DNA of 64,000 nt from an uncultured Solobacterium sp. (GCA_964529805.1 CAZGZT010000007.1:556-64555), one strand, 5' to 3'. Shown: positions 1,720-36,124, counted from the stretch's first letter. A program made the numbers and translations. The notes: generated by a model from the letters alone, not told the origin.

Positions 1720-2403
1720 TCACTTATTTCCGAATTCTTTCTTCTTAATTGGTTTTATGAAATCCTTCCTTAAAGTTCTCTGATTGTGGAAAATAAGGAG
1801 ATTTGATTTCGACAGCATATTCTCTTTGATCTTTTCTTCCAACATCCTGAGCGTGCACAGCATGTCAGCAACCTGGAATAGTTTATAATCCAACGGGAAT
1901 GCTTTCCTGGCATCGTATCCGGATAATTCAGTCGCCAGTACGGTATTCAGGATGCTGTTAAGCTGGTGCTGACCATTATCGTAATACAGGATGACACTAT
2001 CGAATGACTGAAAGAAATCAAGGTTGTTTCTGATGAATGAGGAAAGATCTCTTGCCATTCTTCCCTGGAGTTTGAATAAATCATCATATTCGCTTTTGTA
2101 ATAAAGGAAGGTCTTATAGGATATGCTGCAGCTCATCGCAAAATAGAACAGCTTTGTAAACAAGGTTCTTCTTTCGTTGGGAGACAGATTCCTGTAATCC
2201 TCTTCCCTTCTGATCAGAGGCTCGGTATGCACGACATGGCCATGAAAACCCAGCTGATCAAGCTCCCTGTTGAAACGGTCTATCTGATCTGAAATATCAA
2301 ATGTCTGGTCATGCAGAACCATTGACACGATATAATACGGTGAATGAGTCTCGTATTCGCCGAAATCTCCGCTCTCGTCTACAAAAACACTTAAAACCTT
2401 CAT
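1720..2403 (-). CDS. DUF3800 domain-containing protein
   Basis: N-terminus MKVLSVFVDESGDFGEY... carries the (V/I)(F/Y)(V/I)DESG signature of DUF3800. I prefer ATG at 2403 (SD GAAGGGA 6 nt upstream) over the TTG at 2418 used by the ORF track. Confidence 0.75.
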   Translation of the reverse strand: MKVLSVFVDESGDFGEYETHSPYYIVSMVLHDQTFDISDQIDRFNRELDQLGFHGHVVHTEPLIRREEDYRNLSPNERRTLFTKLFYFAMSCSISYKTFLYYKSEYDDLFKLQGRMARDLSSFIRNNLDFFQSFDSVILYYDNGQHQLNSILNTVLATELSGYDARKAFPLDYKLFQVADMLCTLRMLEEKIKENMLSKSNLLIFHNQRTLRKDFIKPIKKKEFGNK

Positions 2404-2415
2404 TATAAATCCCTT

Positions 2416-2443
2416 CAAAAAGAATAGCGGGAAGTCTTCCCGC
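2416..2443 (-). terminator. rho-independent terminator ending the RR-HK-GT2-small membrane operon
   Basis: Minus strand reads GCGGGAAG-A-CTTCCCGC followed by TATTCTTTTTG. Confidence 0.7.
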
Positions 2444-2545
2444 CGATTAGGTTGGACCCGGGTCTTGCGACCAGCCCACTTGTACCATTATATTAACAAA
2501 GTTTCCTGAAATTATCAATCAGACATATCTATCTCTTTTCGGTCA

Positions 2546-2776
2546 TTATATATTCTGGAAGATCTTTCTTTTCATCCATAACGCTATAGCTACCGTCAAT
2601 ACTTTTTCCGGTGTAAAAGGGAGCCATATGATTGTCAGATAGAAAGCTGAAATTGAAATCAGAAGATTTGACTTAAAGTACATCCCTATTCCCATAAACA
2701 GATATGCCCATCCATTTGTTATCATCCACGCCAGAACAAAGCATAGAATAAATTGTTTACTAAAGACTGTTTTCAT
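2546..2776 (-). CDS. small hydrophobic membrane protein (76 aa), putative partner of the upstream glycosyltransferase
   Basis: Track ORF with 2-3 predicted TM segments. Its start overlaps the GT2 stop by 17 nt. Confidence 0.6.
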   Translation of the reverse strand: MKTVFSKQFILCFVLAWMITNGWAYLFMGIGMYFKSNLLISISAFYLTIIWLPFTPEKVLTVAIALWMKRKIFQNI

Positions 2777-3986
2777 GAGTAATTGTCACTGTATGCCTGA
2801 TCGGTTTCCAGCTTACATCGGCAAACAAGGCACAGACTGCTATAGGGATGTAGGATGCCATAAACAAAGGAAAAGTAAACGTATATCTGATTTTGTTGAG
2901 CAACCTGGTATTGATCCGTTTCCATTCGGTAATGGTCGTCAGCAGACCGATAAGATACATACACAGATACGCCTTCAGTAATCCTTCCAGCAGATTAGAC
3001 AGGAATGGGATCATATCGCTTTTGGTAACAATCAGATAGGAAGACATCAAGATATCAAATATCAAAGATACGACCGAAAGACCGTAAGCAGACAGGATCG
3101 TGCTCAGCATGTCAAAGCAGGAAAAGGATCCTTCACAAATGCCTTTGACCAATCTTGTACTGTACTTCCAGATGACTTCAAGGTAGCCTTTAGACCATCT
3201 CAGTCTTTGATAGACGGATTGAACGAACGATGTCGGCTGTTCATCATATACGATCGCTTTATCACAATACGCGATCGTGTGATGTCTGCAGACCTGATCA
3301 ACCGTGAATTCAATGTCTTCAGTCAGCGTATGATATGGCCATTCTTTTGCTGTTTCTTTATCAAACAGGAATCCCGTTCCGTTTATGGCGCTGCTTAAGC
3401 CGAGCAGATGCCTGGCGTTGTTCAGGAAACGGTTCTTTCTTAACAGATACAGGGAATATCCTGCGGATATCCAGTTGGATCCGTAGTTCTTGCTGTTTAT
3501 ATATCCGGCAATAATCTTGTTGCCTTGACAGTAGGAAATATTCATCTGCTCAAGATAATCATCCTTCAGGATGTTGTCAGCATCGAAAACCAGAAAGGCG
3601 TCGAAAACATCACCATAATCCTTCTCAATATTTCGTAATAAGCTTTCCAGGGCATATCCCTTTCCTACATACTCATCATCGTTCCTTGTGTAGACTACAG
3701 CACCGCATCCTTTGGCTATTTCAGCCGTTGAATCGATACAGTTGTCTGCCATCACAAATGTCCGATAATGCTTTTCCGGATAAGTCTGACGGTCTATGCT
3801 TTCGAGCAGATTTCCAATCACTGTTTCTTCATTTCTGGCACAGATCAGAACCGCAAAATCGTGATATTTCAGCTCATAATCCTTCTCCTTCTCTTTTCCG
3901 AATAGTGAAATGAGAATGTATAATCCCTGATAAGAAAACAGCAGCAGGAACAGCACTTTCATCATGCAATCAAAAATACCAAGCAT
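2760..3986 (-). CDS. processive family-2 glycosyltransferase (IcaA/NodC/HasA-class membrane-embedded synthase)
   Basis: Motifs VLICARNEE...DNCIDST, FDADN (DxD) and QRLRWSKG (QxxRW). One N-terminal TM and several C-terminal TMs. SD AAGGAGGA upstream. Confidence 0.85.
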   Translation of the reverse strand: MLGIFDCMMKVLFLLLFSYQGLYILISLFGKEKEKDYELKYHDFAVLICARNEETVIGNLLESIDRQTYPEKHYRTFVMADNCIDSTAEIAKGCGAVVYTRNDDEYVGKGYALESLLRNIEKDYGDVFDAFLVFDADNILKDDYLEQMNISYCQGNKIIAGYINSKNYGSNWISAGYSLYLLRKNRFLNNARHLLGLSSAINGTGFLFDKETAKEWPYHTLTEDIEFTVDQVCRHHTIAYCDKAIVYDEQPTSFVQSVYQRLRWSKGYLEVIWKYSTRLVKGICEGSFSCFDMLSTILSAYGLSVVSLIFDILMSSYLIVTKSDMIPFLSNLLEGLLKAYLCMYLIGLLTTITEWKRINTRLLNKIRYTFTFPLFMASYIPIAVCALFADVSWKPIRHTVTITHENSL

Positions 3987-15226: not shown

Positions 15227-15574
15227 TGGTGGAGTTGGAGGGACTCGAACCCTCGTCCTAGAATAATCCCACATTTAAACGTCTACAGTTTAGTTTAACT
15301 TTAAGTAAGACAGCACCCATGGCTTAAACTACCGGATACTGAATCCGTCTTTTCGGTTTTCGGATGGCAAGAGAAAGAACGAAACTTGCTTCACCTAGTT
15401 CATGTATACGACTGACTGTTATGAACCTGGCAGCCAGAAGCGCCTAAAGTCTACGTCGACTTATTGGTTAGGCAAAAGCTAATTCAGTGTTAGCGTTTAA
15501 TTTGTTTTGATGATTAGGTCATCACACCACTGCAGTTTAAATCAAACTAGACCAGTCGAAACCAATTCAACCCC
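15227..15574 (-). ncRNA. ssrA: tmRNA (transfer-messenger RNA)
   Basis: The 5' end GGGGTTGAATTGGTTTCGAC pairs with the 3' end ...GGACGAGGGTTCGAGTCCCTCCAACTCCACCA, giving a tRNA-Ala-like acceptor with G3:U, a T-arm and CCA. The internal tag frame is TGA TGA CCT AAT CAT CAA AAC AAA TTA AAC GCT AAC ACT GAA TTA GCT TTT GCC TAA (...NKLNANTELAFA*). Confidence 0.93.
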
Positions 15575-15616: not shown

Positions 15617-15805
15617 TTACTTCCTGCGGAAGAAATTCACCAGCAGTATGACTGCGAAAATGACGACTGCGCCAATCAGAATGATTGGGAGAACACCGAT
15701 TGCCCGTGTGACTGGATCCGGTGCAACATCCGCATAAACGCCTAAGGCAAATATACGCATCAGCAGTAAAGAGAATACAACGGTTTTCAGAATATTCTTT
15801 GCCAT
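15617..15805 (-). CDS. 62-aa secreted/anchored mini-protein (signal peptide, short Pro/Asp linker, TM helix, RRK tail)
   Basis: MAKNILKTVVFSLLLMRIFALGVYADVAPDPVTRAIGVLPIILIGAVVIFAVILLVNFFRRK. Strong SD AGGAGG 6 nt upstream of ATG 15805. This is the in-frame tail of track ORF 15617..16078. Confidence 0.6.
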   Translation of the reverse strand: MAKNILKTVVFSLLLMRIFALGVYADVAPDPVTRAIGVLPIILIGAVVIFAVILLVNFFRRK

Positions 15806-16131
15806 AAAAGACCTCCTAAAACAGATATCAGGTTCAGTATCAACGACAGAAACAGACAGTTTCTTTTTACCGGAAGATATTTCCTGTACAGGAGATATTC
15901 GCTTAATACTACTATAGGTTCCAGTAAGAGATAAGTGATGATCTGACCTTTTTCTATACCTATATGATACATCAGAAGAAGAGAAATGTAGACAAGGATA
16001 GGGTTTGTTATGAGGTTGATTAAAGCCGTCAGGAGAAGCTCTTTCTTTCTTAGACCTAGAATATAGGCAAAACCGCATTCCAGCACTAGAGTCAGCAATA
16101 ATGGCCTTAGAAAGAGGCTTAGATCATTCAT
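15787..16131 (-). CDS. 114-aa polytopic membrane protein of unknown function
   Basis: MNDLSLFLRPLLLTLVLECGFAYILG... with about 4 TMs and intramembrane Glu residues. ATG 16131 overlaps the upstream stop by 8 nt. Confidence 0.6.
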   Translation of the reverse strand: MNDLSLFLRPLLLTLVLECGFAYILGLRKKELLLTALINLITNPILVYISLLLMYHIGIEKGQIITYLLLEPIVVLSEYLLYRKYLPVKRNCLFLSLILNLISVLGGLLWQRIF

Positions 16132-17155
16132 TGTCTTCTCCTGTGGCTGCTGCAGCAAGCAGGATGATTAAGGAAGCAACGGAAGAGATGCTTCCGAAGG
16201 GATATGGAGGGATGTTACGGATCATTCCGTATAAAACAGGGAGATAGCCGATAAACAGTCCGAAGGTCAGGATTCCGAAAGCAAAGCCCGGCATCTGGGA
16301 CATGTTTCTCGCTAAAAGATAGAGAGTCAGAGGCATGGTCATGTTGAAGAGGAACAGTGCCAAGAGACCCGGAATCATCTTTGATGACAAAGCGTAGAAT
16401 ACAGCTGAAAGGATCAGCGTTACAATGATGGTCTTCTTCATTCCAAATCTGGCAGAGAGAAGACCTCCTGCCGTTTTACCAAAAGCAAGGAACACGACAC
16501 TCAGGAATACTTTCCATGGAGCATCCTTCCATGGGAAACTGATGGCCATTCCGGTCAAGGAACGAAGCACGACAACAATGAAGCAGAACAGGATCAGATA
16601 CAGGACTTTTCTGTTTACCGAAACGGTTCCTTTATCAATTGTTTCCATCTCTTTCCTGTTTCTGTATGAGACATAGGCCAACAGCAGCAATACTGCAGAT
16701 ACAGCGATCTGTATCATCAGATACTGCTTCGTATCGTAGAACAGCATGCCCAGACAAAGACCGATCGCTCCCGGTGCAACAAATACACCCAGGCCTCTTC
16801 CCTTCATTTGAGAGAGATCATCCTCATGAATGGTCAGAACACCTCCTCCCGCATGGAACAGGGCATTGCCAAGTCCCAGTACAATCGGAGATAAAAAAGG
16901 GCCAATTACCGTCAGAACGATTCCTGCGATCATAAAGACCATGGCCGGATAAAACATCTTTCTTGTTTTTCTGGACCAGGAGTCGATCAGGATGCCGATC
17001 GGCATCTGTAAGGCAAAGGCGCAGTAGTTGTATAAAAGAAATACATCAGGGACAGCACTGAAGCTGTGGTAAAGAGAAAAGGCACAGAGAAAATCGATGC
17101 CGCAGTGGCAAAGGGAATAGATCGAGATCTGCTGCAGTGCCTCTTTTCTGTTCAT
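16124..17155 (-). CDS. 343-aa polytopic membrane protein with MFS-like loop motifs, function unknown
   Basis: About 10 TMs. Loops IGILIDSWSRKTRK and GGLLSARFGMKKT resemble MFS motif A. The start is 1 nt after the DUF62 stop. Confidence 0.65.
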   Translation of the reverse strand: MNRKEALQQISIYSLCHCGIDFLCAFSLYHSFSAVPDVFLLYNYCAFALQMPIGILIDSWSRKTRKMFYPAMVFMIAGIVLTVIGPFLSPIVLGLGNALFHAGGGVLTIHEDDLSQMKGRGLGVFVAPGAIGLCLGMLFYDTKQYLMIQIAVSAVLLLLAYVSYRNRKEMETIDKGTVSVNRKVLYLILFCFIVVVLRSLTGMAISFPWKDAPWKVFLSVVFLAFGKTAGGLLSARFGMKKTIIVTLILSAVFYALSSKMIPGLLALFLFNMTMPLTLYLLARNMSQMPGFAFGILTFGLFIGYLPVLYGMIRNIPPYPFGSISSVASLIILLAAAATGEDNE

Positions 17156-17156
17156 C

Positions 17157-17999
17157 TTATTTGGTCATGGTGATCTTCCATTCCTTGCCTACGCCGATTC
17201 CGTAGACCTTGGAAAAAGATCCCTGATTGATCGCTACAGCCATGTCATAGGCCGAATTCATGTAGATTAAAGGTTCATTGATCTCAACATCCGCAAAAGA
17301 CTTGCCGTAGTTGATCTTGTTGGAATAGACCTTTACATCGTCATGGTAGATCTCTACCAGAATATCGTCGCCGAAATCAAAGCCGCAGGCCTTGAAATCG
17401 GAATAAGGGATAGAAGTCCATAAAGAACCAAAACGCACATCCAGAATATCGATCTGTCCCATGACACCGTTCGGGATCTTCTTACATCCATAGAGTTCCA
17501 GCTTTACGATATCTTCCTTGTCCATCAGAGGGCCTACCTGTTCAAAGCTGATCGTTTCCGATGCCAGTCTGGCTGCCGTGTAGGCATAAACATCTCTGCC
17601 GTGGAAAGTATAGGAGAGTTCCGAGTTCTTCAGTCTGTTGGTTCTCTCTTCGATCTCTCTGATCTCTTCGATACCGATGAAACGGTCGATGTGGGTCAGT
17701 GTACCGTTGTCAGGTGTTACGACATACTGGTTGGTTACGGTCTTGGCTACGACCGATTTTCTGTTGGAACCGACACCCGGATCGACGACCGATACGAAAA
17801 CCGTTCCTTCCGGCCAGTAAGTGATTGCCTGATGCAGACGGTAGGACGCATCAAAGATGTTGTACTGGGGAATGTTGTGGGTCAGATGACGGATGTTCAG
17901 ATCCTGAGATACGCTGTAGGATACGCCTTCCATGGCGCTGATTGCTGCATCATCCAGTCCGAAATCAGTCTGAAATACGATGATTTTATTCATGTTCAA
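17157..17999 (-). CDS. DUF62 family protein (S-adenosyl-L-methionine hydroxide adenosyltransferase / SAM hydrolase family), paralogue 2
   Basis: IVFQTDFGLDDAAISAMEGV..., FVSVVDPGVGS..., TPDNGTLTH..., FHGRDVYAY are family hallmarks. Confidence 0.85.
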   Translation of the reverse strand: MNMNKIIVFQTDFGLDDAAISAMEGVSYSVSQDLNIRHLTHNIPQYNIFDASYRLHQAITYWPEGTVFVSVVDPGVGSNRKSVVAKTVTNQYVVTPDNGTLTHIDRFIGIEEIREIEERTNRLKNSELSYTFHGRDVYAYTAARLASETISFEQVGPLMDKEDIVKLELYGCKKIPNGVMGQIDILDVRFGSLWTSIPYSDFKACGFDFGDDILVEIYHDDVKVYSNKINYGKSFADVEINEPLIYMNSAYDMAVAINQGSFSKVYGIGVGKEWKITMTK

Positions 18000-18831
18000 A
18001 TACCACCTTGTAATCCTGACCGTAGCTCAAGTCATAGTCTTTGCACAGGTTTCCTACGACTTCGGCCATGGCCATTTTATTCAATTCATTATTATAGATC
18101 ATTACGCTGTGATCGGGAGCCTTACCGAAGGAATCGTAGTAAGGGATGACCTGATCAAATACTTTTTCATCGTAGTGATAGATCAGAGCATGTACATTAT
18201 CGCCTATCTTGAATCCGGCATGCAGGAAATCCTGCAGCGGAATATTGGTCCAGAGATTGCCGAAGTTCGGATCGCAGATCTCAAACATTCCTTCGATGGA
18301 TCCGTCCTTGATGACAGGTTCGATGATCTCGTGTCTTTTAATCAGAGCCATATCATAGACAGGGCCGACTTCTTCATAGGTGATCTTGCCGCTGGCAAGC
18401 TTTGCCGCACAGTAGCCAAACAGATCCCGTCCATGGAAGATAGATACAAAACCGTTGTCTTCCCTGTGCAGTCTGTTTACCGTTTCATCGATCTCTCTGA
18501 CTTCCTCGATGCCGAAATACCTGTCGACATGCGTCAGTGAACCGTTATCCGGCGTAACGATGTAGTAGCCGTTCTTCGTTCTGGCGACACAGGCTCTTCT
18601 TGATGTGCCTACTCCCGGATCGACGACCGATACGAAAATAGTTCCTTTCGGCCAGAAGTCAATGTACTGATATAAACGGTAGGATGCCGACCAGGTATCG
18701 TACTGCGGGATCTCATGGGTAGCGGTGATGATCTCAATGTCTTCATCGACACTCTTGACGACACCGTACATTGCGGCTACGGCGCCTTCCTTGTATGTGA
18801 AGTCTGTCTGGAATACCAGCATCTTTTTCAT
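17986..18831 (-). CDS. DUF62 family protein (SAM hydroxide adenosyltransferase family), paralogue 1
   Basis: LVFQTDFTYKEGAVAAMYGV..., FVSVVDPGVGT..., TPDNGSLTH..., FHGRDLFGY. ATGA overlap with the M20 gene. Confidence 0.85.
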   Translation of the reverse strand: MKKMLVFQTDFTYKEGAVAAMYGVVKSVDEDIEIITATHEIPQYDTWSASYRLYQYIDFWPKGTIFVSVVDPGVGTSRRACVARTKNGYYIVTPDNGSLTHVDRYFGIEEVREIDETVNRLHREDNGFVSIFHGRDLFGYCAAKLASGKITYEEVGPVYDMALIKRHEIIEPVIKDGSIEGMFEICDPNFGNLWTNIPLQDFLHAGFKIGDNVHALIYHYDEKVFDQVIPYYDSFGKAPDHSVMIYNNELNKMAMAEVVGNLCKDYDLSYGQDYKVVFEHE

Positions 18832-20180
18832 TTCTCTGTCTCCATTAAAGCGATCTTCTCAATCGTCTCATAATATATTCTAAACATCAGTATACATCTT
18901 TCCAGATCGATATTCTCGCCTTTCTGATGAGCGGTATGTTCCTCGTCAGGGAAAACAGGTCCGAAACTGACGCAGTGCTTGAATACCTTGGAATAGGAAA
19001 CGCCACCGGATACAATCGGTCTTGTCATGTCACCGGTAATGTCCCAGTACGTTTCCAGCATGGTCCTGACATACGGATCATCTTTCTTGCATAAGGTAGG
19101 ATCGTCATTGTATGCGAGAACGATATTACCTTTACTCAGAACCTGCAGGTCTTTTGTGAGTTGTTCGGCAGTCACTCCATATGGATAACGGCAGTCGATC
19201 TGAGCGGATATCTTTCCCTGGGAAATATGTAATACACCCAAATTCAGGCTTAGACATTCCATTGGATCTTCACTGATGAAGTGATTGAATCCTCTGCCAT
19301 AGCTGTCTCCATAGACTTCATAAAGATTCTGACAAAGTTCATCCTGATAGACATCGGCAATGATCTTCAGAAGATCAATCGTAGCACTGTGGCCCAGCGC
19401 CGGCAACGATGCATGTGCAGCAGTTCCATAGGTTTCTATATGGATCTGACCGTTTTCAACTGTAGTCATCCCGTTGATGCCGCTTTGTTTCAGATAATCG
19501 CAGAGTCTTTCATAAGAAGCTGAATCGTTGATAACGCAGGATGCCCTGTCCGGAATGATGTTGCACTGTGAACCACCGTTAAAGGAAGAAAGAATGCCTT
19601 CATACTCGCCATCCAGGGTCCACATGATCGCACCCTTTTCGCCGATCCCCATCGGGAAAGATCCATCCGGTGTGAAAGCGAAATCCGGCAGTCCGGCCTT
19701 GGAGACATAGTAGTACATGTCGTTCATCGTTCTCTCTTCATCTCCGCCCAGAACGATGCGGATCTCCTTATTGATGTCAGGATGTCTTTCTCTTAACAGT
19801 TTCAAAGAAAGATAAGTCAGGAACATCGGTACTTTCATGTCGGTCGTTCCTCTGCCAATCAGTTTTCCGTTTTCTGTTCTAATATTGAAGTCTTCCGGAT
19901 CCGCAGCTACCACATCCAGATGGGAAGCGATATCGATACGGACATCTCCCATGCCGTGAGAAAAACTCATCACATGACCATCGTATTCCGTTACCTTAAA
20001 TCCATCCTTCTCAGCCAGATCCTTCATATACGCAAAAGCCTTACAGACATTGATTCCGTAAGGCATCTGATCATTTGCGCTGGATGCATCGTAGACGGAA
20101 GGGATTTCCAGTAAAGAGATCATCTCCGGTAATGCATCATAAAACAGTTTGCGGTAATCTATTTGATCCATGGACACCAC
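18828..20180 (-). CDS. M20-family metallo-dipeptidase (PepV/Sapep-like)
   Basis: HLDVVAA, GRGTTDMK, GGDEERT and the C-terminal ...EEHTAHQKGENI are typical M20 dipeptidase motifs. 450 aa. Confidence 0.85.
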   Translation of the reverse strand: MVSMDQIDYRKLFYDALPEMISLLEIPSVYDASSANDQMPYGINVCKAFAYMKDLAEKDGFKVTEYDGHVMSFSHGMGDVRIDIASHLDVVAADPEDFNIRTENGKLIGRGTTDMKVPMFLTYLSLKLLRERHPDINKEIRIVLGGDEERTMNDMYYYVSKAGLPDFAFTPDGSFPMGIGEKGAIMWTLDGEYEGILSSFNGGSQCNIIPDRASCVINDSASYERLCDYLKQSGINGMTTVENGQIHIETYGTAAHASLPALGHSATIDLLKIIADVYQDELCQNLYEVYGDSYGRGFNHFISEDPMECLSLNLGVLHISQGKISAQIDCRYPYGVTAEQLTKDLQVLSKGNIVLAYNDDPTLCKKDDPYVRTMLETYWDITGDMTRPIVSGGVSYSKVFKHCVSFGPVFPDEEHTAHQKGENIDLERCILMFRIYYETIEKIALMETEK

Positions 20181-21013
20181 ACTTCAAATTCAGGCTTGTA
20201 TAACATCTTCATGACGGTTTCCGCTATCAGAAGAGCACACAGCAGCAGCACGATCGGAGCCAGAACCTTATCTCCAGGCGTATCCTCGTGCTCGCAATAG
20301 TAAGTCTTGTCCTTGTTCTTGCCAAAACCTCTTAAATCCATGCCGTTGGCGATATTGCCCACTCTGTCGAATGAAGTAATGATCAGCGGAACCAGAATCA
20401 GTACATACTGTTTCAGTCTAGTAAACAGTGAGGACTTTCTCGAATCCAGTTCCAGTCCTCTTGTCTGCATGGATATTCTGATGTTGTTGAAGTCTCTGGT
20501 AATGTCCGGAATATAACGGAAAGCCAGGGATACGATCATACAGATCTTGTATGGGATCTTGATGGAATGTAGTCCTGCCGCCAGTTCGCTAGGCGTAATG
20601 CTTTGAATGAAAGTCAAAGAAAGCAGGAAAGTCGCCATGAACTTGGTCAGACGGACCAGAAAGTACCACAGAGTCTCTGAAGTAACGATAAAGAAATCGG
20701 TAAACCTGAACAGTACCGTTGATCCGCCTACCATTTCCAGACCGTAGTTCGGCTTGATCAGCCAGGTCAGGAAAAGATTAAACAGATTCATGAACAGCAC
20801 AAACAGAATGATCGCGATGTTCTTCTTCTTGTCCGGTTTAATGGATATCAAAGAAACGATCGATAACAGCAGGACCGGAATCATGATCCTGATATCCCAG
20901 GTAAAGGTCAGGATAAAGATCAGCAGGAAGAAGATTCTTACCTTGGTCTTGCCGGTAAGCCTGTCAATGAAAGTGTTTCCCGGAGTCAGAGTAATAAAAA
21001 GTTTCTCATCCAT
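20159..21013 (-). CDS. ECF transporter transmembrane (T) component
   Basis: EcfT/CbiQ-like with the conserved ...IRISMQTRGLE... loop. Start placed at ATG 21013 (SD AAGGAGAG) rather than 21040. Confidence 0.85.
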   Translation of the reverse strand: MDEKLFITLTPGNTFIDRLTGKTKVRIFFLLIFILTFTWDIRIMIPVLLLSIVSLISIKPDKKKNIAIILFVLFMNLFNLFLTWLIKPNYGLEMVGGSTVLFRFTDFFIVTSETLWYFLVRLTKFMATFLLSLTFIQSITPSELAAGLHSIKIPYKICMIVSLAFRYIPDITRDFNNIRISMQTRGLELDSRKSSLFTRLKQYVLILVPLIITSFDRVGNIANGMDLRGFGKNKDKTYYCEHEDTPGDKVLAPIVLLLCALLIAETVMKMLYKPEFEVWCPWIK

Positions 21014-22709
21014 TTTCTCTCTCCTTCTTTTCACATTCAATGAAATAGTGTATGTATTCTTCCGGATCGATTCCCGCTTTCTGGGCTATCGTTACCAGTG
21101 AAGTCTTCTTTAAGGAAGCACGTTCAATGATATCGTCATCGGAAAGGATCTTGTATACGACATCGTCACCGATCATTTCTCCGTCCGTAAAGACGATGGC
21201 TCTGTCCGTGTATTCGATTGCCAGATGCATGTCGTGGGTAACGAACAGGATCGTGATGTTGTGTTTCTCGTTGAGCTCACAGATGAAGTTCATGATCTCG
21301 GTGTAGTGGAAGTAGTCCTGTCCGGCTGTCGGTTCATCCAGAATGATGACCTTAGGCTGCAGGGCAAGGATGGAAGCGATGGTGACTCTCTTCTTCTGTC
21401 CGTAGCTTAAAACGGATACAGGCCAGTTGCGCATCGGATAGAGTCCGGCCATTCTTAGAGTATCTTCTACTCTTTGACTGATCACGTCTTCCGGGAAACT
21501 GTTCAGTTTCAGTGCCAGTTCGATCTCATCCTTGATGATATCTTTTACCAGCATCTGGTTCGGGTTCTGCATGACATATCCGACGATCTCTCCCAGTTCC
21601 TTGATCGAATACTTCAGATAGTCTTCTCCTTCGATCAGGATCTGCCCTTTGGAAGGACGGATGATACCGCATAAGAGCTTGGCCAGCGTGGATTTCCCTG
21701 CACCGTTCTTTCCGACAACTGCGATTCTCTCTCCTTCGTACAGATCAAAAGAAATATCCTTCAAGGCAGGATAGTCGCCGTAGTAGTAAGTTACATCCTT
21801 TACTTCGATCAGTTTCTTTTCTTTCTTTTTCGGTTGACTTATCTTAACCGCATGGAAATGTTTTAGGATCTTGTCCTTGTACTTGTCGATATTCAGATCT
21901 TCGATGGAAGCGAGTTTATCATCCTCTGTAAACTTGACCCCGGCATTCTTTAAGGCAGAAATATATAAAGGCTCTCTGATGCCGTTTTCCTTCAGCATGT
22001 TCGAGGAAAGCAGTCTATCAGGCGTGGTATCCAGAAGGATCTTTCCTTCGTTCATCAGAATGATCCTGTCAACATGACGGTAGAGAACGTCTTCCAGACG
22101 ATGTTCAATGATCAGGACCGTCTTGTGATGATCACGGTGAATCTTATCGATCAGGTCTACCGCATTCATTCCCATGGCCGGATCCAGGGATGCCAAAGGC
22201 TCGTCAAAAAGCAGTATCTCGACATCGTTGTGCAGAATGCCTGCCAGAGCCGTTTTCTGTTTCTGACCTCCCGAAATATTGTAAGGAACAGACTTCAGGA
22301 ACTTCTCCATCCCAACGATCTTCGCCGAAAAATCGACTCTTTCCAGCATCTCCGGTCTTGGCACCATGTCGTTCTCCAGAGAAAAAGCAATGTCTTCTCC
22401 AACGGACAATCCGACAAACTGCGCATCCGTATCCTGCTGCACCGTTCCTACATGTTCAGAAATCTTAAAGATCGAAGCTTCCTTTGTCTCCAGACCGCAG
22501 ACTTTACATGATCCCTTTATTTCACCGTCAAAGGAAAAAGGTATCAATCCGTTAATACAGCTGCCCAAGGTAGTCTTCCCACTACCACTAGGGCCCAGGA
22601 TCAATACCTTTTCACCTTTGTTAATAGTTAGATTGATGTCATGTAATGTGAATTCATTCTGCGTCTTGTAACGGAAACTGAAATCTTTGAATTCAATTAC
22701 AGCCGACAT
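21006..22709 (-). CDS. ECF transporter fused double ATPase (A-A' components)
   Basis: Two complete ABC cassettes: GPSGSGKTT/ISGGQKQK/LLFDEPLASLD and GKNGAGKST/LSYGQKKR/IILDEPTAGQD. Confidence 0.9.
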   Translation of the reverse strand: MSAVIEFKDFSFRYKTQNEFTLHDINLTINKGEKVLILGPSGSGKTTLGSCINGLIPFSFDGEIKGSCKVCGLETKEASIFKISEHVGTVQQDTDAQFVGLSVGEDIAFSLENDMVPRPEMLERVDFSAKIVGMEKFLKSVPYNISGGQKQKTALAGILHNDVEILLFDEPLASLDPAMGMNAVDLIDKIHRDHHKTVLIIEHRLEDVLYRHVDRIILMNEGKILLDTTPDRLLSSNMLKENGIREPLYISALKNAGVKFTEDDKLASIEDLNIDKYKDKILKHFHAVKISQPKKKEKKLIEVKDVTYYYGDYPALKDISFDLYEGERIAVVGKNGAGKSTLAKLLCGIIRPSKGQILIEGEDYLKYSIKELGEIVGYVMQNPNQMLVKDIIKDEIELALKLNSFPEDVISQRVEDTLRMAGLYPMRNWPVSVLSYGQKKRVTIASILALQPKVIILDEPTAGQDYFHYTEIMNFICELNEKHNITILFVTHDMHLAIEYTDRAIVFTDGEMIGDDVVYKILSDDDIIERASLKKTSLVTIAQKAGIDPEEYIHYFIECEKKERENG

Positions 22710-22711
22710 GA

Positions 22712-23290
22712 TTAGTCTTCTTTACTTAAGTTCGTACCGCGGGCATTTCTTCTTGCCAGAGCGAAGAGAACAGGAATGCCTACAACGATCAGTACAGAAG
22801 CGTCAGAAATGATGGCAGCCTGAGCCTGTACCCAAGTGATCGTCAGTTCGCTGGAATACCACAGGTATGTCAGGAACGGAGTAACAATACCGAAACCGAA
22901 TGCACAGCCGATGACACACAGAACAGCGTGAATGACAGCGTGTTTTGTCGTGAATACGCCATTCTCAACGTCAGCACCAAAAGCGCCTACCAGACCGGCG
23001 AAATAACCTGCTACGAAGTTGCCTAATGACCAGTCGAACCAGAAGCCCCAGCCGCCAATCAGGTCAGCGACACAGTTTCCTAAACCTGCGGATAATGCTG
23101 CAGGAAGAGGTCCGAACAGAGCACCGACGATAGCCGGAATAACGTATGCGGATGTCAGCGAAGTGTTGGTCGTAACCTTAATACCGCCATAGTTCATCAG
23201 TACGCCAAACAGTGCAGCGCCGATCGCAACACCGACGATAGTCTTGGTATTCCAAGTACCAAGCAGTTTCTGAGCTAAACTCTTTTTCAT
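22712..23290 (-). CDS. ECF transporter substrate-specific (S) component, substrate unknown
   Basis: 192 aa, about 6 TMs, N-terminus ...WNTKTIVGVAIGAALFGVL... typical of S components. SD AGGGGGA. First gene after the riboswitch. Confidence 0.75.
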   Translation of the reverse strand: MKKSLAQKLLGTWNTKTIVGVAIGAALFGVLMNYGGIKVTTNTSLTSAYVIPAIVGALFGPLPAALSAGLGNCVADLIGGWGFWFDWSLGNFVAGYFAGLVGAFGADVENGVFTTKHAVIHAVLCVIGCAFGFGIVTPFLTYLWYSSELTITWVQAQAAIISDASVLIVVGIPVLFALARRNARGTNLSKED

Positions 23291-23317
23291 AATTTAATCC
23301 CCCTATAATTCTTTTCC

Positions 23318-23445
23318 ATAAAACAAGGCCAATCATCAGATGGGCCTTTCTTTTCTTATTTACCCATCGTTCAAGCTTTAGCACCTTGGATAATCAGGTT
23401 GCTGAGATTTCACAGAGCTTGCCTCTCCACCTCTCTTTATGGACT
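23318..23445 (-). promoter_or_regulatory. SAM-I (S-box) riboswitch with intrinsic terminator
   Basis: Minus strand reads CCATAAAGAGAGGTGGAGAGGCAAGCTCTGTGAAATCTCAGCAACCTGATTATCCAAGGTGCTAAAGCTTGAACGATGG. The S-box signatures AGAGAGGTGGAG, GTGAAA, GCAACC and GGTGCTAAA are present, with P1 as CCAT/ATGG. This is followed by AAGGCC-N12-GGCCTT and GTTTTAT. Confidence 0.75.
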
Positions 23446-23450
23446 TAATC

Positions 23451-23479
23451 ATCTTATCACTAACGGCCTATGAAATCAA
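23451..23479 (-). promoter_or_regulatory. candidate promoter of the riboswitch operon (TTGATT-17-TAAGAT)
   Basis: Hexamers read on the minus strand just upstream of the aptamer and 12 nt downstream of the metI stop. Confidence 0.4.
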
Positions 23480-23491
23480 TCATTCAAAGCT

Positions 23492-24151
23492 TTAGTTTTT
23501 TCTCTTGTCCAATTCTTTCGCCAGCCTGTTTCCGACCAGCTGGAACAGCTGTACCAACACTACGATGATCACTACCGTAATCAGCATGATATCGCTCTGA
23601 TAGCGGTAGTAGCCGTAACGGATCGCAATGTCTCCAAGTCCGCCTCCGCCTACTGCCCCGGCCATAGCCGAATAGCCGATAATCGTACCCAGACAGATGG
23701 TAGCACCGGCGATCAGGGAAGGCCTTGCCTCCTTTAAAAGCACTCTGCAGATGATCTGCAGGTCGGAAGCTCCCATGGACTGTGCCGCTTCGATCACACC
23801 CTTGTCTACTTCTTTCAAGGATGACTCTACCATTCTGCCGATGAACGGAATAGCCGACACGGTCAGTGGAACGATCGTCGCAAAGGTACCGTAGGATTTA
23901 CCCGCAATCAGTCTAGTAAACGGAATGATCAATATCAGCAGGATGATAAACGGGATACTTCTGCCGATGTTTACCGCGATATCCAGAATACGGTAAAGGA
24001 TACGGTTCGGCTTGATTCCATCCTCATCTAAAATGCATAACAGTACTCCCAAAGGCAGACCGAACAGATAGCCGAAGAACGTGGAACAGAAGACCATCAG
24101 CAGTGTTTCGCCGATGCCCTTCAGAATCATCAAAGCTACAGCGCTACTCAT
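23492..24151 (-). CDS. metI: methionine ABC transporter permease
   Basis: MetI-like permease with an EAA-type loop (...EAAQSMGAS...). ATG 24151 behind SD GAGGAGG is preferred to the TTG at 24172. Confidence 0.88.
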   Translation of the reverse strand: MSSAVALMILKGIGETLLMVFCSTFFGYLFGLPLGVLLCILDEDGIKPNRILYRILDIAVNIGRSIPFIILLILIIPFTRLIAGKSYGTFATIVPLTVSAIPFIGRMVESSLKEVDKGVIEAAQSMGASDLQIICRVLLKEARPSLIAGATICLGTIIGYSAMAGAVGGGGLGDIAIRYGYYRYQSDIMLITVVIIVVLVQLFQLVGNRLAKELDKRKN

Positions 24152-25169
24152 AGTCGTTAACCTCCTCGACAACGATCGATCTGTTTTCTTTCAGATACTT
24201 GATCATCTTTTCTGCCAGTTTCTCATCATCCGGAAGCTGTACCATCATCTGTCCTCTGGATGTTCCGGAGATCGAGGTGATGTTGGATTCCAGGATGTTG
24301 ACAGGCGTCTTGAATTCCAGGATCAGGTTGGCGATGACCGGTTCAGTCGTATTGGTTTCTTCAAAGGCAATACGCAGGATCTTTCCTCCGGACATGGATC
24401 TTACCTGATTGGTAGAGTTAAAGATCAGTCTTCTGGCAGCTGCAGTCTTAGGATGTCTGAACAGTTCTTCGACCGTGTTTTCTTCCGCCAGTCTGCCGTC
24501 TTCCAGGACCAGACAGCGGTCTGCGATCTCCTGAATAACCGCCATTTCATGGGTGATCAGGACGATCGTAATGCTGTAGTCTCTGTTGATCTGTTTCAGC
24601 AGTTTCAGGATCGACTTGGTTGTTTCCGGATCCAGTGCGCTTGTGGCTTCGTCACAAAGCAGGATCTCCGGATTGCTGGCGAGGACTCTGGCGATGGCTA
24701 CTCTTTGTCTCTGTCCTCCGGAGAGCTGCGAAGGATAGGCCTTGGCCTTCTCCTCCAGACCTACCACCTTCAGATAAGACAGTGCTTTTTCTCTGGCAAC
24801 CTTTCTGCCTGTTCCGGATATCTCCATCGGGAAACAGACATTGTCCAGGACCGTTGCCTGCATCAGCAGATTAAAAGACTGGAAGATCATGCCGATCTTT
24901 CTTCTCTTCTCTCTGAGACTCTTCTCATCCAGCGACAGCATGTCCTCCCCGTCGATGACGATCTTCCCTTGGCTTGGTCTTTCCAGCAGGTTCAAACAGC
25001 GCACCAGCGTGGACTTGCCTGCACCGGAGAGTCCGATGATCCCGAAGATCTCTCCCTTGTGTACTTCAAAAGATACGTCATTGAGCGCTTCTACGGTGCC
25101 TGACTTGCTTTCGAAAGTCTTGGAAAGATGATCTACCTGGATCATCAGATCAGTATTCGGTTTTTTCAT
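24144..25169 (-). CDS. metN: methionine ABC transporter ATP-binding protein with C-terminal NIL regulatory domain
   Basis: GLSGAGKST, LSGGQRQR and LLCDEATSALD are present. The C-terminal ~100 aa are NIL-like. 341 aa. Confidence 0.9.
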   Translation of the reverse strand: MKKPNTDLMIQVDHLSKTFESKSGTVEALNDVSFEVHKGEIFGIIGLSGAGKSTLVRCLNLLERPSQGKIVIDGEDMLSLDEKSLREKRRKIGMIFQSFNLLMQATVLDNVCFPMEISGTGRKVAREKALSYLKVVGLEEKAKAYPSQLSGGQRQRVAIARVLASNPEILLCDEATSALDPETTKSILKLLKQINRDYSITIVLITHEMAVIQEIADRCLVLEDGRLAEENTVEELFRHPKTAAARRLIFNSTNQVRSMSGGKILRIAFEETNTTEPVIANLILEFKTPVNILESNITSISGTSRGQMMVQLPDDEKLAEKMIKYLKENRSIVVEEVNDYE

Positions 25170-25978
25170 TCAGTAAACGGAACAACCGCCCCTTCATATG
25201 TTTTGTTGATGAAATCTACGATTTCCTGTGAAGTCAGTACTTTAACCAAAGCCTGAATTCCTTCATTGTTTTCATTACCTTCCTTGACAGCCAGAACGTT
25301 GACGTAAGTCTTCGCTGCGGATGAATCGGCTTTCTCATAGGCGATCGCATCGCGGGAAACGTTCAGTCCTGCAGCCAGGGCGTAGTTGCCGTTGAGGATG
25401 ACCAGTGCGGCATCTTCTCTGGATCTGGCGATCTGGGCGGCTTCTACTTCAACGATCTTGATGTTTACGGTGTAGGAAACGACGTCGTTAACGGTAACGA
25501 TGGTGTCTGCTCCTGTTCCATCAGGCAGAGTCAGAATGCCGTTGTCCTGTAACAGCAGCAGCGCTCTGGTCTCATTGGTTCCGTCATTCGGAATCAGGAC
25601 TTCATCGCCGTCTTCCAGCTGATCCAGGGCTGTCTTTTTGCCCGGATAGATGCCGAACGGTTCATAGTGGACCTTGCCTACTACGACCTGTTTCGTGCCG
25701 TGCTCTTCATTGTAGTTGTTCAGATAAGGAACGTGGGCGAAGTAATTCGCATCCAGTTCTCCGGATTCTACGACTTCGATCGGCTGTACGTAGTCTTCGA
25801 ATTCAAAGACTTCCAGCTCCCAGCCTTCCTTCGCCAGAATTTCCTTGGCTACAGCCAGGATCTCAGCGTGCGGGGTCGGTGAAGCCGCAACCGTGATCTT
25901 CTTTTCGTTGCCTTCCTGTTTTCCTGAACAGGCGCATAATGTCAGTAATACCAGCAGCAGTGTAATAATCTTTTTCAT
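25166..25978 (-). CDS. metQ: methionine-binding lipoprotein (NlpA/MetQ family)
   Basis: MKKIITLLLVLLTLCACSG lipoprotein signal. Start placed at ATG 25978 (SD GAGAGGAG). The track extension to 26020 would overlap the T-box terminator. Confidence 0.88.
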   Translation of the reverse strand: MKKIITLLLVLLTLCACSGKQEGNEKKITVAASPTPHAEILAVAKEILAKEGWELEVFEFEDYVQPIEVVESGELDANYFAHVPYLNNYNEEHGTKQVVVGKVHYEPFGIYPGKKTALDQLEDGDEVLIPNDGTNETRALLLLQDNGILTLPDGTGADTIVTVNDVVSYTVNIKIVEVEAAQIARSREDAALVILNGNYALAAGLNVSRDAIAYEKADSSAAKTYVNVLAVKEGNENNEGIQALVKVLTSQEIVDFINKTYEGAVVPFTE

Positions 25979-26017
25979 AACTCTCTCCTCTCTTGATTCT
26001 TTGTATCCCGATAGAAA

Positions 26018-26249
26018 CAAAAAAGCCGCCCATAAGGACGACTTGTCATCGTGTTACCACCTTAATTCGTGTATCTCTACACCTCATCCGGATACAAACA
26101 TATCCCGGCACTGTAACGTGTGCTCTTACGTCCTGTTCTCATCGAACAGACGGCTCCAAGACCATGTTCATCTGCCCCCTGACGTTTCCTTTCACCATCC
26201 GGAAACTCTCTACGCTCTTCAGACAGACTACTCTTCTCTTCTAAGCTTT
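26018..26249 (-). promoter_or_regulatory. T-box leader, Met-specific (AUG specifier)
   Basis: Minus strand shows the AG bulge CGTAGAGAGTTTCC, distal loop GGATGGTGAAAGGAAAC, specifier-loop context CAGATGAACATGGTCTT (ATG at 26163..26165 followed by a purine) and T-box sequence AATTAAGGTGGTAACACG. The terminator is GTCGTCC-TTAT-GGGCGGC plus TTTTTTG. Confidence 0.8.
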
Positions 26250-26255
26250 TTCTAA

Positions 26256-35954: not shown

Positions 35955-35984
35955 AGTTCCTCTTTCTAACACCCATATACACAT

Positions 35985-36085
35985 AAAATAAAACCTGTAT
36001 CCATAGACACAGGTTAAAAATCATCTTCAGATTAACCTCGGTAACATGATTAAGCGATAGCGCCGTTACTGTCTATGGTATATCG
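35985..36085 (-). promoter_or_regulatory. candidate ribosomal protein L10 leader (autoregulatory 5' UTR structure)
   Basis: Long-range stem CCATAGACA (36078..36070) / TGTCTATGG (36009..36001) encloses nested hairpins (GGTTAA...TTAACC) directly upstream of rplJ. Confidence 0.5.
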
Positions 36086-36095
36086 ATGCGTTAAT

Positions 36096-36124
36096 ATATT
36101 ACCTTATTTAATCTTTTTTTTCAA
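36096..36124 (-). promoter_or_regulatory. candidate rplJL promoter (TTGAAA-17-TAATAT)
   Basis: Hexamers read on the minus strand between the surE stop and the L10 leader. Confidence 0.5.

Follow-up and report, generated by a model that had tools for sequence, protein, structure and literature searches.

A conserved energy-coupling factor importer-DUF62 gene cassette under S-adenosylmethionine- and methionine-sensing RNAs in an uncultured Solobacterium and other Firmicutes: a candidate route to methionine

INTRODUCTION

Energy-coupling factor (ECF) importers connected with methionine have been predicted before: TCDB lists a predicted ECF "Methionine precursor (Met-P)" family, 3.A.1.29, and a "Methylthioadenosine" family (PMC3654945). 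Here we describe a gene cluster at positions 15617 to 23479 of a 64,000-nucleotide (nt) stretch of DNA from an uncultured Solobacterium sp. (GCA_964529805.1, CAZGZT010000007.1:556-64555; the whole stretch is referred to as the window, and positions are counted from its first letter). The cluster encodes a dedicated ECF importer, an M20 dipeptidase, two proteins of the S-adenosylmethionine (SAM) hydrolase family DUF62, and three membrane proteins, one of which has the major facilitator superfamily (MFS) fold, and it lies behind a SAM-I (S-box) riboswitch. An S-box-linked ECF importer is not a new idea, since TCDB already lists a predicted family. Compared by description only, the Met-P family shares with the cassette a dedicated ECF module that includes A and T components of its own, and a link to methionine via the S-box; the near-obligatory DUF62 genes, the Met T-box variants, the accessory M20 gene, and the MFS trio of the cassette are in no description found. 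The Met-P genes are said to have been named MtsTUV by Rodionov et al. in 2009. An initial annotation of this DNA knew of no characterized SAM-type ECF importer or defined pathway with this gene set. Our literature search likewise found no paper linking ECF transport to DUF62/SAM hydrolase or to SAM uptake, but the predicted Met-P family had been overlooked.

The same outline logic is found in QueK-QrtT-QueL, a queuosine salvage operon of Clostridioides difficile controlled by a preQ1 riboswitch, in which uptake of a nucleoside conjugate through an ECF S component is followed by hydrolytic release of the wanted moiety (PMC11477304). An end-product riboswitch, an ECF S component, and a cytoplasmic hydrolase are common to both; the riboswitch class, the S family, the enzymes, and the metabolite differ, and QrtT works on a shared ECF module, whereas the cassette has its own fused AA' ATPase and T component. 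The S-box and Met T-box regulons, which include MetNIQ, use the same sensors and the same logic, and the window itself has a Met T-box followed by metQNI directly upstream of the ECF cluster. MetNIQ, however, is a type I ATP-binding cassette (ABC) importer of methionine itself and has no coupled hydrolase. The SAM transporters of obligate intracellular bacteria (Rickettsia and Chlamydia) belong to the DMT/EamA family and take up intact SAM. What they share with the cassette is the proposed uptake of SAM; they differ in their unrelated carrier family, in the use of SAM unhydrolyzed, and in having no riboswitch.

Hydrolysis of SAM in vitro by DUF62 enzymes has been known since 2008. The reaction converts SAM to adenosine and methionine; characterized members prefer the inactive (R)-sulfonium epimer, unlike the related fluorinase, which acts on the (S) epimer (PMC12120602; 10.1101/2025.08.29.672840). 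The reason for a cell to break down a cofactor that is expensive to make is a matter of debate: the physiological role of DUF62 was disputed in 2025, with doubt cast on (R)-SAM repair as the true function (PMC12120602). The (R)-SAM hydrolases StDUF62, PH0463, MJ1651, and SaciSAMH resemble the two DUF62 proteins of the window (D1 and D2) in their two-domain fold family and their Asp-Arg-His triad. They are, however, stand-alone proteins that are read as metabolite repair enzymes, whereas the cassette holds divergent paralogue pairs tied to an importer under Met/SAM control.

RESULTS AND DISCUSSION

An ECF importer and DUF62 genes form a conserved unit

Nine tightly packed minus-strand open reading frames (ORFs) lie behind the riboswitch, in the order S, AA', T, M20, D1, D2, and ORFs of 343, 114, and 62 amino acids (aa). 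The junctions of the initial annotation were reproduced, with a gap of 2 nt between S and AA', a gap of 1 nt between D2 and the 343-aa ORF, and overlaps of 4 to 22 nt elsewhere (ATG starts chosen), and family-model searches agreed with the families it had named (ECF S, AA', and T, M20, and two DUF62). The 192-aa S component (22712..23290(-)) matched PF07155 with 85 bits. It is followed by a fused ECF A-A' ATPase of 567 aa (21006..22709(-)), with two ABC_tran domains plus DUF3744 and scores of 413 bits with TIGR04520 (cutoff, 315) and 355 bits with TIGR04521 (cutoff, 330), and by a T component (20159..21040(-); PF02361 CbiQ, 86 bits) of 293 aa from a TTG start or 284 aa from the ATG at 21013. 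By their family models S, AA', and T are of the dedicated (group I) ECF type, and the three genes are adjacent, with 2-nt to 35-nt junctions.

A scan with the S protein, one genome per species, gave 192 relatives, and 80 loci (given L numbers here) were kept. These span Erysipelotrichaceae, Lachnospiraceae, Oscillospiraceae, Christensenellaceae, and other Clostridia and include three cultured species. Counts of gene content rest on the 47 of the 80 loci that were complete enough to judge. At least one DUF62 gene stands beside S-AA'-T in 46 of these 47 loci, at least two in 35, and five in 3; an M20 gene is present in 32 and the three membrane genes in 3. As judged by gene content, the conserved unit is S-AA'-T plus DUF62, with M20 as an accessory. 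When neighboring ORFs of the 80 loci were clustered, five families recurred (S, AA', T, DUF62, and M20), and metK, nucleosidase, deaminase, flavin, or other methionine genes were not recurrent beside the cassette; the next most common neighbors (a MATE pump, metI/metQ, and a second M20) reached at most 8 of 80 loci. Only five families recur, and therefore the cassette is self-contained. The ECF-DUF62 linkage is very strong, so DUF62 most likely acts on the cargo of the transporter. The nine genes had initially been taken as one system. They do form a single transcription unit gated by a SAM riboswitch, but the nine are not conserved as a whole: M20 is optional, and the membrane trio is an independent module.

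SAM- and methionine-sensing RNAs precede the cassette in three lineages

The leader of the window's operon contains a SAM-I (S-box) aptamer of a P4-minimal variant (23361..23445(-)), which scored 54.3 bits with RF00162 versus a gathering score of 44.4, over the full length of the model and with an E value of 9.7e-10 for the entire 64-kb window. An intrinsic terminator follows (23318..23348(-)), which reads AAGGCCCAUC-UGAU-GAUUGGCCUU and then GUUUUAU, with the hairpin at 23325..23348, the U-tract running to 23318, and a folding energy of -12.8 kcal/mol. Thus, the S-box-like aptamer and downstream terminator seen initially were confirmed. Orthologous leaders (L013-L019, L031, and L095) scored 51.7 to 63.9 bits with RF00162, and an equivalent terminator hairpin (-12 to -18 kcal/mol) is present in all 10 leaders. 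Over the ten leaders, P1-P3 and the terminator are 95% paired, with six compensatory pairs (three each in P2 and the terminator stem), and their covariation score was reached by none of 500 shuffles. A candidate antiterminator is formed by GAUGGG, in the 3' strand of P1, and CCCAUC, in the 5' arm of the terminator; the two are 98% pairable in the leaders and yet invariant. Because the pairing is invariant, it agrees with the model but does not prove the antiterminator.

The initial annotation had suggested that S-box, ECF, and DUF62 might co-occur in related genomes. The ECF-DUF62 part of this held, as described above, but a SAM-I leader before S was found only in the window's own clade (L013-L019 and L031), or 8 of the 79 loci for which sequence before S was available; one more precedes the alternative ECF module of L095. 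A riboswitch as a universal part of the cassette was rejected: it is absent from L001 and L005 at permissive thresholds and from 15 further loci. In two other clades the cassette lies behind T-boxes with an AUG specifier, placed before S in L061 (106 bits) and in L080 (85 bits), L088, L090, and L092. The specifier loop of all of these T-boxes is GAA-N-AUG-G and matches that of the window's own metQNI T-box, which served as a positive control. Reading the specifier as CAU (His) was rejected, as the codon is fixed as AUG by the conserved purine abutting the helix, a reading that also applies before metQNI.

Sensors of SAM or of uncharged tRNA-Met thus stand before the cassette in three lineages, which argues that the output of the cassette is methionine. 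The Met T-boxes, found at a minority of loci, argue independently for a tie to methionine supply and strengthen the link to methionine starvation proposed in the initial annotation. Among the 79 cassettes that have upstream sequence, about 66 showed nothing recognizable before S; about 20 of these were scanned with Rfam and the remainder by sequence pattern only.

L095 represents the chromosomal locus of the window, with metI upstream and ssrA downstream, but carries a different ECF module (S, 28%; AA', 51%; and T, 35% identical). It shares a homologous SAM-I leader and the same D1-D2-trio block. In L095 an alpha/beta-hydrolase (S33/S9-like) gene (1996..2787) lies between metI and the S-box leader and overlaps the metI stop codon by 1 base.

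Catalytic residues of DUF62 and M20 proteins

The DUF62 paralogues D1 (281 aa, 17986..18831(-)) and D2 (280 aa, 17157..17999(-)) are 46% identical. D1 matched SAM_HAT_N with 154 bits and SAM_HAT_C with 42 bits, and D2 matched them with 166 and 69 bits. The Asp-Arg-His catalytic triad is intact in both (Asp71/Arg78/His133 in D1 and Asp73/Arg80/His133 in D2). D2 has a structural homologue in PDB 2zbu (E value, 8e-41), and SalL and PH0463 are among the PDB homologues. The Asp, Arg, and His residues are kept in 114 to 123 of 126 cassette DUF62 copies. Divergence separates these copies into two main groups, each with one member in most cassettes. In Oscillospiraceae, tandem arrays of five DUF62 genes occur with no M20 gene (L077, 5393..9217; L082, 13349..17199; L087, 13337..17147), and the second copy in these arrays has lost the catalytic Asp, Arg, and His.

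The M20 metallopeptidase (450 aa, 18828..20180(-)) is a Sapep/PepV-type dipeptidase (TIGR01887, 297 bits; cutoff, 208). Its score with the PepV equivalog model, 301 bits, was short of the cutoff of 435. It aligned with Sapep (3khx) at an E value of 3.5e-46, and the HxD, D, EE, D, and H metal/catalytic motifs align.

A proposed route to methionine and its alternatives

With SAM bound, P1 would form and the terminator would halt transcription; at low SAM, pairing of the terminator's 5' arm with the 3' strand of P1 would let the operon be read through. The ECF importer would then take up an adenosyl-sulfonium compound, for which the simplest candidate would be environmental SAM, which outside cells is a mix of the active (S) and inactive (R) epimers. 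D1 and D2 would attack C5' with water to give L-methionine and adenosine. DUF62 needs a 5'-sulfonium leaving group, so SAM is the simplest cargo. The M20 enzyme would be an optional extra that frees peptide-bound or N-blocked methionine, and the membrane trio would be a separate transport module joined to the operon. We judge the chances to be about even that an adenosyl-sulfonium compound is what the ECF system takes up, SAM with its inactive R epimer being the simplest case, and that the DUF62 pair frees methionine from it.

In the initial annotation it appeared paradoxical that two SAM hydrolases should be expressed exactly when SAM is scarce. This paradox largely dissolves, because S-box control is the ordinary on-switch for methionine-supply genes in Firmicutes and because the active SAM of the cell itself need not be a substrate of the enzymes, the characterized DUF62 enzymes acting on the inactive (R) epimer. 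As a speculation, two divergent DUF62 paralogues could handle both SAM epimers. It is with some doubt, and only tentatively, that we go further and suggest that the cassette is the first ECF-type SAM importer, that it gives bacterial DUF62 its physiological role, and that the two paralogues convert the epimer mix fully to methionine and adenosine; in that case the paralogues would perhaps have complementary stereoselectivity or form a heterotrimer.

Several points weigh against import and hydrolysis of SAM. ECF importers are usually low-capacity scavengers of micronutrients, and the demand for methionine is high. Hydrolysis of SAM leaves the M20 gene in two thirds of the cassettes, and the arrays of five DUF62 genes, unexplained. 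The large number of cassettes with no recognizable SAM or Met leader means that regulation backs the link to methionine in three clades only. D1 and D2 score far under the cutoffs of the (R)-SAM hydrolase equivalog models NF058624 and NF053629 (95/137 versus 350 bits and 84/116 versus 470 bits). Finally, whereas the RNA elements, the gene families, their conserved linkage, and control by two independent sensors of methionine or SAM are shown by the analysis, we infer which substrate is carried, which way it flows, and what M20 and the trio do.

In the leading alternative, the cargo of the importer would be a different supply of methionine (Met dipeptides, N-acyl-methionine, or another precursor) on which M20 works. 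DUF62 would leave this cargo alone and be a housekeeping function for (R)-SAM repair, co-expressed so that, at times of methionine shortage, methionine is regained from intracellular SAM that has been damaged spontaneously. The M20 protein is indeed a genuine Sapep-type dipeptidase with its metal ligands intact, TCDB gives the S-box-linked ECF family only as "methionine precursor," and the characterized DUF62 enzymes are (R)-SAM-specific repair/salvage hydrolases (10.1101/2025.08.29.672840; PMC12120602). This explanation is nevertheless disfavored, because DUF62 and not M20 is the constant partner of the transporter (46 of 47 versus 32 of 47 loci), even in cassettes with no Met/SAM leader. No other methionine gene recurs by the cassette, and five tandem DUF62 genes (L077, L082, and L087) are hard to fit to housekeeping repair. 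Overall we regard it as unlikely.

The varying number of C5'-cleaving paralogues, from one to five, together with a peptidase suggests a range of related substrates. Such an arrangement could import and disarm or exploit a SAM-like antimetabolite or a peptidyl-nucleoside (S-adenosyl-ethionine, a sinefungin-like compound, or an aminoacyl-adenosine), with M20 removing an amino-acid cap and DUF62 cleaving at C5'. A SAM riboswitch or Met T-box in the leader, however, points to nutrient supply and not to defense, and a third of the cassettes do without M20; we consider this role very improbable.

Import of riboflavin or another flavin, as public annotation has it (the source records call S an "ECF-type riboflavin transporter substrate-binding protein," after NCBIfam NF010182), deserves hardly any credence: the model is passed marginally by the S protein of the window (106 bits versus a cutoff of 99) and clearly by the alternative S of L095 (2991..3536; 213 bits), which is itself behind a SAM riboswitch, but the leaders recognized at orthologous loci are SAM-I or a Met T-box and never FMN (flavin mononucleotide), no flavin genes are linked, and a profile of S against solved structures in PDB found no S component, RibU included, at an E value of up to 10. 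The S subfamily is a narrow part of PF07155, with only 12 representatives at an E value of 1e-30 or below (clusters at 50% identity, among 1.8 billion). An invariant GGWGFWFDWS motif and D76/E148 of the S component are candidates for residues of the binding pocket. The riboflavin-transporter name seems to have been inherited from the title of the Pfam family and is probably a propagated misannotation for this subfamily.

The transporter almost never occurs without DUF62 and has come independently under methionine- or SAM-sensing RNAs in three lineages, which gives DUF62 a testable role, the freeing of methionine from an imported compound. If the proposed import and cleavage of an adenosyl-sulfonium compound is true, ECF importers would gain a new substrate class, and a widely spread "riboflavin transporter" annotation would be corrected. 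SAM would then be a nutritional source of methionine, which Firmicutes that abound in the gut and rumen would scavenge in this way. For experiments there are three cultured species with the cassette, Stecheria intestinalis, Massilimicrobiota timonensis, and Suilimivivens aceti (L068, L063, and L083).

Additional features of the leader

In a comparison with the four-way junction of P1-P4, P1, P2, and P3 of the aptamer are present, with 100/95% pairing, and P4 is nearly missing: 17 model positions are deleted (AAAGCUUGAACGAUGGG), and at most one G-C pair is left. All 10 orthologous leaders are alike in this. P4-minimal leaders are found across a whole clade (L013-L019, L031, and L095), and they nonetheless exceed the gathering score.

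The putative promoter of the ECF operon (23451..23479(-)) consists of a -35 element, TTGATT (23479..23474), a 17-nt spacer, and an extended -10 element, TGaTAAGAT (23459..23451). The extended -10 core, TGnTAnnAT, is invariant across 9 orthologous leaders, and L095 has TTGAAT-17-TACTAT at the equivalent place. A consensus promoter scan did not list the site; we infer the assignment from its sequence and conservation.

Directly past the terminator lies UUAUGG (23316..23321(-)). It is invariant in 10 leaders, and its complement, CCAUAA, is part of the 5' strand of P1 (23442..23437); the two pair in the minimum free energy fold of the full leader. The UUAUGG/CCAUAA pairing showed no covariation among the ten leaders; it would be a possible long-range helix within the read-through transcript. 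A 10-codon upstream ORF starting from the invariant AUGG was considered and rejected, as it has just 2 codons in L018.

A terminator-like hairpin inside the M20 gene

The initial annotation saw no internal terminator in the operon. This proved to be wrong: a terminator scan found a terminator-like hairpin inside the M20 gene (20030..20064(-)), GCCUUACGGA-7 nt-UCUGUAAGGC followed by UUUUGCGU, with 10 bp, a UUUUG tract, and -17 kcal/mol. It lies 116 nt into the gene, where the transporter genes meet the enzyme genes. The hairpin is kept at the same offset in the six M20-bearing relatives of the SAM-riboswitch clade (L016-L020 and L031), with M20 identity down to 47%, and includes a compensatory C-G to U-A change that replaces Cys by Tyr/His in the protein; M20 genes from other clades lack it. 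Set between the transporter genes and the enzyme genes, the hairpin could be a partial terminator or could serve in processing or stabilization. The balance of transporter and enzyme transcripts may depend on it.

The last three genes are a module of their own

The three last ORFs had been annotated as unknown membrane proteins. For the first this no longer applies: the 343-aa protein (16124..17155(-)) is a compact MFS-fold transporter. Its AlphaFold model (predicted local distance difference test [pLDDT] score, 93; predicted template modeling score, 0.90) has 12 to 13 helices in two six-helix bundles, and Foldseek matched it to MFS carriers with a probability of 1.0 and template modeling scores of 0.60 to 0.68. 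Many polar residues are invariant, including a motif-A-like G54xxxD58. No Pfam family, MFS_1 included, matched the window's 343-aa protein at an E value of up to 0.01, and PF07690 is precomputed for some homologues only. Its 100% identity to a protein on a contig of a metagenome-assembled genome marks the host as an uncultured rumen or gut member of the Erysipelotrichaceae. The idea that the protein is an alternative S component at loci with no PF07155 gene was rejected given its MFS fold, and L095 carries a divergent PF07155 S gene.

The other two ORFs are real, with homologues in many loci. The 114-aa protein (15787..16131(-)) is a four-helix membrane protein and a conserved partner of the MFS protein: of 80 metagenome loci, most have its gene directly 3' of that for the MFS protein, with identity as low as 35%, and E18, N39, T42-N43-P44, E71, N100, and S103 are invariant. 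Its model (pLDDT, 85) gave no significant PDB fold match, and it had no Pfam hit. The 62-aa protein (15617..15805(-)) is a bitopic membrane protein with a signal-like N terminus and a C-terminal transmembrane segment; an AGGAGG ribosome-binding site precedes its ATG, and at least 13 loci have a tblastn homologue in the equivalent place.

Among the 80 metagenome MFS loci, DUF62 or ECF genes adjoin the MFS gene only in close Erysipelotrichaceae relatives. The trio is an independent module because it is mostly found with no ECF or DUF62 genes; it was added behind D2 in this Erysipelotrichaceae group only and stands outside the conserved system. The two-gene module of MFS and 114-aa proteins is widespread in Firmicutes (L008, L009, and L093-L172). 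At distant loci, a protein of about 280 aa after the MFS pair has no Pfam hit and no significant fold match.

Surroundings of the cassette in the window

Upstream of the cassette, a Met T-box leader with an AUG specifier (26031..26252(-); RF00230, 109 bits) precedes metQ (25166..26020(-)) and metN (24144..25169(-)), both of which were top model matches, and metI (23492..24172(-); MetI, 248 bits versus a cutoff of 212). metI ends 13 nt ahead of the ECF promoter, and the terminator scan found no terminator-like site between metI and the aptamer. With no terminator after metI, read-through from metQNI would also meet the S-box terminator, giving tandem control by T-box and then S-box.

Downstream, the transfer-messenger RNA gene ssrA (15227..15574(-); RF00023, 110 bits) lies 42 nt past the last ORF, and no terminator was found between the two. 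ssrA has the same position in L011, L016, L019, L020, L031, L095, and L100, whichever ECF module or gene set precedes it, and pemK RNA motifs are found just past ssrA in L016 (18386..18444) and L031 (18403..18460). Elsewhere in the window, an L10 ribosomal-protein leader is present at 35979..36096(-), and a DUF3800-XI RNA motif (RF02975; 2429..2478(-)), with 59.8 bits versus 37.8, lies beside a 232-aa ORF (1720..2418).

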